The position numbers and the translations under genes are program-made. Positions 5,526 to 5,558 of a stretch of 5,754 nucleotides of DNA are shown here, piece by piece. This DNA is from a virus (lineage: Monodnaviria; Loebvirae; Hofneiviricota; Faserviricetes; Tubulavirales; Inoviridae), in IMG/VR virus record IMGVR_UViG_2698536559_000001, positions 1 through 5,754 of that record. One strand, given 5' to 3'. The notes under the pieces are model-generated. The model searched no databases, had not been told where the DNA came from, and saw only the letters and a list, made by a program, of their open reading frames with translations. Numbering within the stretch: the stretch's first letter is position 1; each line of letters begins with the position of its first letter.

Positions 5526-5558
5526 AGTGCGTATAAGGTATATGCCGTTATGTTGAAT
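5526..5558 (+). other. Degenerate dif-like XerC/XerD site with a 5-nt expanded central region (candidate phage attP-derived site)
   Basis: AGTGCGTATAA (10 of 11 versus the dif XerC arm), then GGTATA (5 of 6 versus central TGTATA), then inserted TGCCG, then TTATGTTGAAT (10 of 11 versus the XerD arm). It is in the same orientation as the dif site 107 bp downstream and shares its flanking C and the A at position 1. Confidence 0.4.

Follow-up and report, generated by a model that had tools for sequence, protein, structure and literature searches.

A second, putative CTX-type attachment hairpin beside dif in a filamentous prophage of Escherichia coli

To our knowledge, CTX-type integration, in which a folded single-stranded phage site is exchanged with dif, has been demonstrated only for the cholera-toxin phage CTXphi, and the enterobacterial case rests on sequence inspection of the phages Ypfphi and CUS-1phi. 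In this type of integration, XerC catalyzes the exchange of a single strand, XerD plays a structural part only, and replication resolves the product. The forked hairpin attP(+) of CTXphi, formed from the attachment sites attP1 and attP2, was reportedly described by Val et al. in 2005 and Das et al. in 2010. The DNA analyzed here (hereafter the window; 5,754 nucleotides, nt) covers positions 1 to 5,754 of the IMG/VR virus record IMGVR_UViG_2698536559_000001 (Inoviridae). It represents the right-hand end of a filamentous prophage that occupies the dif site of Escherichia coli, since its phage genes are followed by a perfect dif-type site (5665-5692) and by E. coli flanking sequence. Upstream of this dif, at 5526-5558, lies a second dif-like site with an 11-nt spacer, for which a first-pass annotation made from the sequence alone had given the exact coordinates and sequence. 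Taking all lines of evidence together, this site is probably the attP1-like arm of an intact CTX-type folded hairpin (H1) that represents a spare copy, the insertion itself having gone through a second hairpin (H2).

In CTXphi, the central region of attP1 is 12 bp long and that of attP2 5-7 bp, and attP(+), the folded form of the two inverted sites, leaves bases of both the overlap and the arms unpaired (PMC4246890, PMC3442271). Known Xer sites are thus not limited to the central regions of 6-8 bp assumed in the first-pass annotation. Ypfphi and CUS-1phi have been listed as CTX-type (PMC4246890), and a potential inverted pair of XerC/D sites, together with an 'imperfect dif' at the junctions between copies, has been noted for Ypfphi (PMC4266046).

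H1 resembles the CTXphi system in carrying two inverted XerC/XerD-type sites on the packaged strand, in combining an over-long with a short central region (11 nt and 5 nt), and in its predicted fold, with duplex arms, unpaired overlap bases and arm mismatches. In addition, the prophage junctions made by its sister hairpin H2 are exactly those to be expected of a single XerC strand exchange. H1 departs from CTXphi, whose two sites lie about 90 nt apart, in a distance of 33 nt between its arms, which a 12-bp GC clamp closes, and in having E. coli as the host. It is moreover an extra copy, located upstream of the hairpin that was used, and its overlap (GG or GA) mismatches the host dif next to the XerC cut. 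With Ypfphi (Y. pestis) and CUS-1phi (E. coli O18:K1:H7), the phage shares the property of being a dif-integrating inovirus of Enterobacteriaceae that forms tandem arrays. A second tandem hairpin with a different overlap was not found described for them in the papers searched, an absence that is not proof, nor was any tandem pair in which the upstream hairpin has a compensated overlap that should be incompatible with dif. Elements of this kind are already known; what may be new is a variant in which a spare hairpin with another overlap stands in tandem.

Anatomy, fold and conservation of H1

The XerC-like arm of 5526-5558 matched the arm of the neighboring dif (AGTGCGCATAA) at 10 of 11 positions and the canonical E. 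coli arm (GGTGCGCATAA) at nine, and the XerD-like arm matched at 10 of 11. The value of 10 of 11 given for both arms by the first-pass annotation thus holds for the XerD-like arm, and for the XerC-like arm against the neighboring dif but not against the canonical one. The gap to dif was 106 nt (139 nt from start to start) rather than 107 bp. As in chromosomal dif, both arms are dif-like and have the same orientation; unlike dif, the site belongs to the phage and its spacer is 11 nt instead of 6, outside the 6-8 bp that separate the two 11-bp arms of a duplex Xer site. With such a spacer, 5526-5558 cannot be a dimer-resolution site in duplex form.

Taken singly, the arms are unremarkable, as 1.6 (XerC) and 2.85 (XerD) matches are expected per window at up to two mismatches, which would agree with a chance resemblance to dif. 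The ordered pair of arms was found in none of 200 shuffled windows (0/200), and the pair with a gap of 5-12 nt was estimated by simulation at about 3x10^-4 per random window. This composite statistic, the inverted partner, the fold (z = -9.3) and the conservation and covariation described below refute chance as an explanation, leaving it a probability close to nil. The 'cA' preceding GTGCG in both this site and the neighboring dif had likewise been judged unlikely to be a coincidence; both are phage-derived XerC arms of paralogous hairpins, whereas the empty chromosomal site reads GGTGCG.

The first-pass annotation had overlooked the inverted partner at 5592-5619 and the GC-rich inner stem that joins it to 5526-5558 (Table 1). 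The morphogenesis genes all lie on the plus strand, which gives the packaged strand the same polarity, and the two Xer-like sites are inverted on that one strand. In the single-stranded DNA (ssDNA) fold of 5515-5630, a single long hairpin (5524-5621) was predicted, with -38 kcal/mol compared to -16 ± 2.4 kcal/mol for shuffled sequences (z = -9.27). In this predicted fold, the XerC arms pair with one T·G wobble and the XerD arms with a 1-nt bulge and one G·T, while the top overlap (GG...GC(C)G) pairs with CGCTC of the partner and TATAT is bulged out. The same hairpin dominated the fold of the larger segment 5400-5700, which had been proposed as a check, and the tandem H1-H2 region folded into two independent hairpins (z = -12.7). 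A competing pairing of 5592-5619 with dif (5665-5692) was weak (12 nt, 83%) and was rejected, the minimum free energy fold favoring 5524-5621. No Rfam match was found within 5200-5754.

Table 1. Coordinates, strand and basis of assignment of the features in the window
Feature	Position	Strand	Basis
Inovirus morphogenesis block	455-5255	+	Pfam matches, open reading frames (ORFs)
Coat B-like gene	455-706	+	Pfam/ORF
pIII-like gene, Gly-Thr repeat	1017-2624	+	Pfam/ORF
DUF2523 gene	2642-2929	+	Pfam/ORF
Zot/pI gene	2941-3999	+	Pfam/ORF
Secretin/pIV gene	3996-5255	+	Pfam/ORF
Hairpin H1, complete forked CTX-type attP(+)-like	5524-5621	+	ssDNA fold, inverted repeats I2 and I3, conservation, covariation
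H1 top-strand XerC-like arm AGTGCGTATAA; predicted XerC cleavage after 5536	5526-5536	+	
H1 top-strand overlap GGTATATGCCG, 11 nt	5537-5547	+	
H1 top-strand XerD-like arm TTATGTTGAAT	5548-5558	+	
H1 GC-rich inner stem, 12 bp (5559-5570 with 5580-5591), 9-nt loop (5571-5579)	5559-5591	+	Inverted repeat I2, fold
H1 inverted partner (attP2-like), minus strand reads AGTGCGTACAA-GAGCG-TTATGTGTAAAT	5592-5619	-	Inverted repeat, fold
H1 partner, XerD' arm	5592-5603	-	
H1 partner, 5-nt overlap	5604-5608	-	
H1 partner, XerC' arm	5609-5619	-	
Spacer, 45 nt, H1 to H2 XerC arm	5620-5664	+	Comparison with relatives
H2 XerC arm AGTGCGCATAA, phage-derived, left half of regenerated dif (attR)	5665-5675	+	Relatives versus empty site
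Chromosomal half of dif: overlap TGTATA and XerD arm TTATGTTAAAT	5676-5692	+	Comparison with empty site
E. coli chromosome flank, yneL/fim side of dif	5693-5754	+	Chromosome matches and annotations

Fifteen distinct H1 and H2 hairpins were aligned and the predicted structure was imposed on the alignment. Overall, 96% of the cells were paired and 15 of the 40 pairs had changed on both sides; none of 500 shuffles reached any of the covariation measures, and sliding the partner strand as a control lowered the pairing to 27-53%. At position 7 of the H1 arm, the window, cM8a and 700481 types had T:A and the JNE and UTAK types had C:G, whereas the other H1 substitutions changed T·G to C:G (including in the inner stem) or G:C to G·T, or fell at bulge or loop positions. 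The flanks of H1 were meanwhile unrelated or had an identity of about 70%. The inner stem and the overlap differed by about half between H1 and H2, yet the Xer arms were almost invariant, with the XerD-like arm TTATGTTGAAT identical in all 15 variants except for its last base. This invariance despite a diverged stem and overlap argues for continued selection on Xer binding in both hairpins, which would thus be kept as Xer-binding structures.

Three imperfections were also invariant in all 15 variants (alignment columns 11/93, 33/77 and 79), namely the T·G wobble at position 9 of the XerC arm, a G·T of the XerD arm, and the 1-nt bulge of the XerD' arm. That they are so strictly conserved suggests that the arm mismatches matter, possibly by preventing either arm from functioning as a duplex.

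Comparison with related dif inoviruses, also proposed in the first-pass annotation, showed that the hairpin is conserved across relatives: H1 was present in EC12, JNE112863, cM8a, 700481, UTAK-3/-18, L018, L023 and L036-L038. The order H1-then-H2 was found in L023, L037, EC12, JNE23-001, cM8a, 700481, UTAK-3/-18, L018, L036 and L038, and in EC12 it was repeated in every unit of the tandem array. In JNE112863, H1 precedes the regenerated dif and H2 lies at the left phage junction, so that the same order was inferred. In the viral and metagenomic contigs, every H1 seen was intact and followed by H2. Many related dif phages possessed H2 only, without H1 (e.g. E24377A, A20 and 2015C-4136CT1).

The UTAK-3 and UTAK-18 units (L013:19157-19770 and L016:20487-21100) contained two H1 copies 464 nt apart, followed by H2. 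Between the two copies lay a partial duplication of the intergenic region, and the upstream copy had a decayed XerC' arm (TTGTGACGCAACT). A comparable repeat of about 290 nt, without H1, was found in E24377A (L006:9200-9775).

Among the possibilities raised by the first-pass annotation, a site that becomes proper only in a folded single-stranded form, as in CTXphi, is the one supported by the inverted partner, the strong ssDNA hairpin, the covariation, and central regions of 11 nt and 5 nt like those of attP1 and attP2. The suggestion of a phage attP core was correct in that 5526-5558 is an arm of an attP-type hairpin, but the crossover that gave the adjacent dif lay in H2. That the site is what remains of an earlier integration, understood as a decayed dif, is not supported, as the hairpin is intact, lies within phage genomes and tandem repeat units, and has acquired substitutions that keep the pairing.

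H1 is also a long imperfect hairpin, and it occupies the intergenic position downstream of gene IV at which the packaging signals of Ff and IKe are found; the CGGGT of its inner stem is a motif that has been pointed out in the signal of Ff. It could accordingly be a packaging signal or a complementary-strand origin whose resemblance to Xer sites is incidental. Such a role is unlikely given that many relatives, the dif phages without H1 listed above, can dispense with it. Moreover, conservation falls precisely on the Xer arms that H1 has in common with the crossover hairpin H2, and the intergenic segment 5256-5325, similar to plasmid sequence found by repA, is a better candidate for an origin. 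Overall, this explanation was considered highly improbable.

Junctions, overlap sequences and the role of H1

The left junction of E24377A, A20 and 16F5M1D1, each a single prophage, consisted of the host arm GGTGCGCATAA, an 11-nt overlap (TGTGTTACACG or TGTCATACGCG), TTATGTTGAAA, a GC stem-loop and the inverted partner, which in E24377A reads TTTTTACACATAA-CGTCA-TTGTGCGCACT. At the right junction of E24377A and A20, the phage arm was followed by TGTATA-TTATGTTAAAT, whereas attR of 16F5M1D1 differed in having the overlap GACATA. Judged from their sequences, the E24377A and A20 junctions are those that XerC should leave on cutting a folded hairpin of this type, here named H2, in its top strand directly after the XerC arm.

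The dif of the window reads AGTGCGCATAA-TGTATA-TTATGTTAAAT, and the unoccupied site of strain 09-02E reads ...ggtttatgttGGTGCGCATAATGTATATTATGTTAAAT, with GGTGCGCATAA as its XerC arm. In L023, a circularly permuted IMG/VR contig 97% identical to the window, and in the closely similar metagenome contig L037, H1 was followed by the same 45-nt spacer ending in ...ctgctataacAGTGCGCATAA and then by H2 (TGTGACACGCG-TTATGTTGAAA-GC stem-...CGCCA-TTGTGCGCACT). The succession of ...ctgctataacAGTGCGCATAA, TGTGACACGCG, TTATGTTGAAA and the rest of H2 was also found in EC12, L018 and 700481. These comparisons indicate that the dif of the window is the H2 XerC arm fused to the chromosomal TGTATA-TTATGTTAAAT, with H1 left intact just upstream. 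The derivation of the arm from H2 also accounts for the A at its first position. Of H2, the window keeps the XerC arm only.

The spacer itself varied by an indel at window position 5631/5632, where 45 additional nt (L001:9144-9188) were present in EC12, L018 and 700481 and absent from the window, L023 and L037; these additional 45 nt were AT-rich (gtgatgatttatttattttttctcatgtatttttcttatggtgat).

H1 was also considered as the crossover site and rejected. An attL made by H1 would read as the host XerC arm followed by G[AG][TC]ATATGCCG, and chimeric queries for the predicted window-type attL and attR matched no phage-chromosome junction in 5,426 complete E. coli genomes. The right end of UTAK-18 resembled a junction made by H1, but its left junction was that of H2. 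Junctions of the CTX type were thus found for the sister hairpin H2 and not for H1.

Under the reading favored here, 5526-5558 would pair with 5592-5619 on the packaged plus strand to give double-stranded XerC and XerD arms, a GC clamp and, for the overlap, a short paired stretch from which 5-6 nt bulge out. H2, located 45 nt downstream of H1 in the phage genome, would be the hairpin used for insertion: XerC would have cut after its AGTGCGCATAA, which was then joined to the chromosomal TGTATA-TTATGTTAAAT to give dif 5665-5692, leaving the rest of H2 at the far (left) end of the prophage, outside the window. H1 would bind XerC/XerD only as ssDNA and would be idle in its E. coli host because its overlap starts with GG, GA or GAC rather than TGT. 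It would represent a spare attP with a different overlap specificity, probably acquired from another CTX-type element during the copying of hybrid genomes from mixed tandem arrays. As suggested by the CTXphi literature, copying of CTX-type phages from tandem arrays would allow anything between two origins to enter a hybrid genome.

Unexpected here is the presence of a further intact hairpin with an overlap altered in both strands. Every H2-type overlap starts with TGT, as does the TGTATA of dif, and H1 overlaps never do, starting instead with GGT in the window and with GAT or GAC in relatives. Within the hairpin, the partner overlap pairs through its last two positions with the first two of the top overlap (pairs 14-90 and 15-89), and the difference between H1 and H2 at these positions is compensated, with T-A and G-C in H2 corresponding to G-C and A-T (or G·T) in H1. 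H1 is therefore a coherent overlap variant rather than a decayed H2. In CTXphi, ligation needs base pairing next to the XerC cut, where a single mismatch strongly lowers XerC exchange (PMC3442271), and the overlap-compatibility rule applied here is that of this paper and of PMC4246890. The H1 overlaps (GGT, GAT or GAC) do not pair in this way with the TGT of the host dif, so by analogy with CTXphi, H1 should not recombine productively with E. coli dif, and this exchange should be disfavored. The absence of H1-made junctions among the 5,426 genomes is consistent with such incompatibility.

A scan of species-representative genomes for Xer overlaps starting with G found many of them, with GATATA at least 24 times and GGTATA at least seven times, which are the hexamers that open H1 overlaps. 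Among the matches listed, G-start overlaps mostly belonged to Alphaproteobacteria, Magnetococcales, Acinetobacter and Pseudomonas, with other XerC arms, and one enterobacterial G-start dif was present, in chromosomal context, in an Enterobacteriaceae metagenome-assembled genome (GGTGCGCATAA-GATGGG-TTATGTTAAAT). Such dif sites are a suggestive lead as alternative targets of H1. Plasmid Xer sites (psi overlap GATCCA) were also considered as targets and rejected, as no window-like Zot or secretin DNA was found on PLSDB plasmids; the plasmid matches of the window come from another intergenic segment, not from H1.

Alternatively, H1 could be a fossil without function, namely the attP end of a second, heavily deleted Xer-exploiting integrative mobile element (IMEX), with the mini-element 5537-5675, integrated at some time behind the phage, now being copied passively along with it. 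This mini-element is bounded by two XerC-arm/overlap junctions in direct repeat, like any member of an array, and the spacer of the JNE112863, JNE23-001 and UTAK type ends with the last ~33 nt of an E24377A-type phage terminus. The H1 core is also common to several phage backbones with unrelated flanks, an insertion in the XerC' arm shows the decay of the extra copy (H1a) found in UTAK-3/-18 and 16F5M1D1, and the lack of H1-mediated junctions would be expected of a fossil. In contrast, the substitutions in intact H1 are compensatory, wobble-compatible or confined to the bulge and loop although the flanks have diverged, and its Xer arms are nearly invariant even though overlap and inner stem are ~50% diverged from H2. 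Furthermore, the 139-nt circle has no origin and could thus never have been autonomous. A fossil is accordingly a possible but doubtful explanation.

The duplex form of 5526-5558 is ambiguous in register, because the site and dif plus its flank can also be aligned without a gap, with 79% identity over 34 nt. Read in this way, the XerC arm is followed by a 6-bp overlap (GGTATA) and a degenerate XerD arm (TGCCGTTATGT) that matches dif at only 6 of 11 positions. This arrangement, with its well-matched XerC arm, its poorly matched XerD arm and an overlap of 6 bp that is similar to dif, resembles TLCphi attP, which is XerD-first and has a degenerate XerD arm, and suggests a double-stranded site exchanging with dif on the XerD side, as in TLCphi or VGJphi (VGJphi attP being double-stranded and XerC-first). 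The overlap is identical to that of dif at 5 of 6 positions, and its XerD-side half (ATA-T) is invariant in all H1 variants and equal to dif, while the XerC-side half varies.

One natural deletion product, in a single genome, is consistent with such XerD-side exchange. In 16F5M1D1 (E. coli O8:H8; L010:1164-1191, also L159), dif reads AGTGCGCATAA-GACATA-TTATGTTAAAT, with the overlap GACATA instead of TGTATA. It is composed of the H1 XerC arm, the first 6 nt of the H1 overlap and the dif XerD arm, and attL is a normal H2 junction. Compared with the layout of UTAK-3, it corresponds to a 147-bp deletion between the top site of the H1 copy termed H1b and attR, with the crossover inside a 4-nt ATAT and not in the 12-nt identical arm. 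This case was unique among the 5,426 complete E. coli genomes, and a deletion by microhomology could also give the same dif. Moreover, no XafT-like (DUF3653-type) Xer activator was found in the related phages checked, and the inverted partner, whose conserved, covarying strand would be left unexplained, has no role in TLCphi or VGJphi. Exchange through a duplex site was thus considered an improbable account of H1.

Several points weigh against the reading of H1 as a spare folded site. Binding and cleavage of H1 and H2 by XerCD in E. coli phages are predicted, and the overlap rule was established for the XerCD of V. cholerae and CTXphi and is applied here by analogy. The H1 overlap varies among close relatives (GGT, GAT and GAC), which is awkward for one fixed alternative target, and 5537-5675 is bounded exactly like an independent mini-element of an array, so that a phage part and a captured passenger are not cleanly separable. 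The GACATA overlap of the 16F5M1D1 dif comes from H1, which implies that duplex H1 is not always inert. Finally, the left end of the prophage lies outside the window. H1 may be a second address, a passenger, or a duplex substrate used now and then.

A further proposal is a dual-specificity module, in which the tandem hairpins would provide two overlap addresses (TGT for H2 and G followed by A or G for H1) for insertion at different dif overlaps, and duplex H1 would occasionally rewrite the dif overlap of the host. Although unlikely, this proposal would mean that a prophage could alter the host dif overlap, thereby changing which Xer-exploiting elements enter later. If H1 is active, overlap swapping would be a simple route for Xer-exploiting phages to switch or broaden their targets; if inactive, it would mark the assembly of hybrid filamentous phage genomes from mixed arrays at dif. 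In either case, sites with an 11-nt spacer should not be annotated as degenerate copies of dif. The natural E. coli data set, with its 15 covarying hairpins, exact attL, attR and tandem junctions, conserved T·G wobble and 1-nt arm bulge, supports the same mechanism in E. coli as in CTXphi and indicates where XerC would have to cut.

Prophage setting and neighboring sequences

Window positions 5666-5754 matched strain 2015C-4136CT1 at 100%, and hundreds of E. coli chromosomes matched the flank at 5693-5754 over the whole stretch or part of it. Between the secretin gene and dif lies a non-coding stretch of 410 nt. No complete E. coli genome and no deposited phage was identical to the window, and the deposited phage records gave no nucleotide match to the window or to the H1-H2 region.

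The closest relative in the structural genes was L005 (E. coli E400634; L005:5846-14476), with 85% identity over window positions 1-5472. This prophage is not at dif: it is located between hcxB and ybiB, adjoins an IS110-family transposase gene and lacks the att module of the window, so one morphogenesis module travels with two unrelated integration systems. The structural-gene relatives aligned to the window in two pieces, possibly because of the Gly-Thr repeat; at 2095-2270, a long run of GGCACCGGAACA-type repeats encodes the (Gly-Thr)n linker of the pIII-like protein.

Just after the secretin gene, window positions 5256-5470 (strongest at 5256-5325 and 5270-5470) matched at least 5,000 plasmids at 77-87% identity. 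These plasmids were from Escherichia, Klebsiella, Shigella and Salmonella and were mostly conjugative. In pO104_H21, the match to 5256-5325 is located ~770 bp downstream of an IncFII-type repA, a region that we take to be where the primase-dependent single-strand initiation 'G sites' lie. The segment may thus be a shared single-strand initiation signal (complementary-strand origin). Its ssDNA fold was unexceptional (z = -1.25), and Rfam gave no match to it.

In the UTAK-18 array, a co-resident dif phage encoded a 121-aa protein with a TolA C-terminal domain (L016:21414-21779; Pfam E-value 2e-12), the gene being on the strand opposite to the phage genes. This protein might interfere with TolA-dependent entry of filamentous phages.
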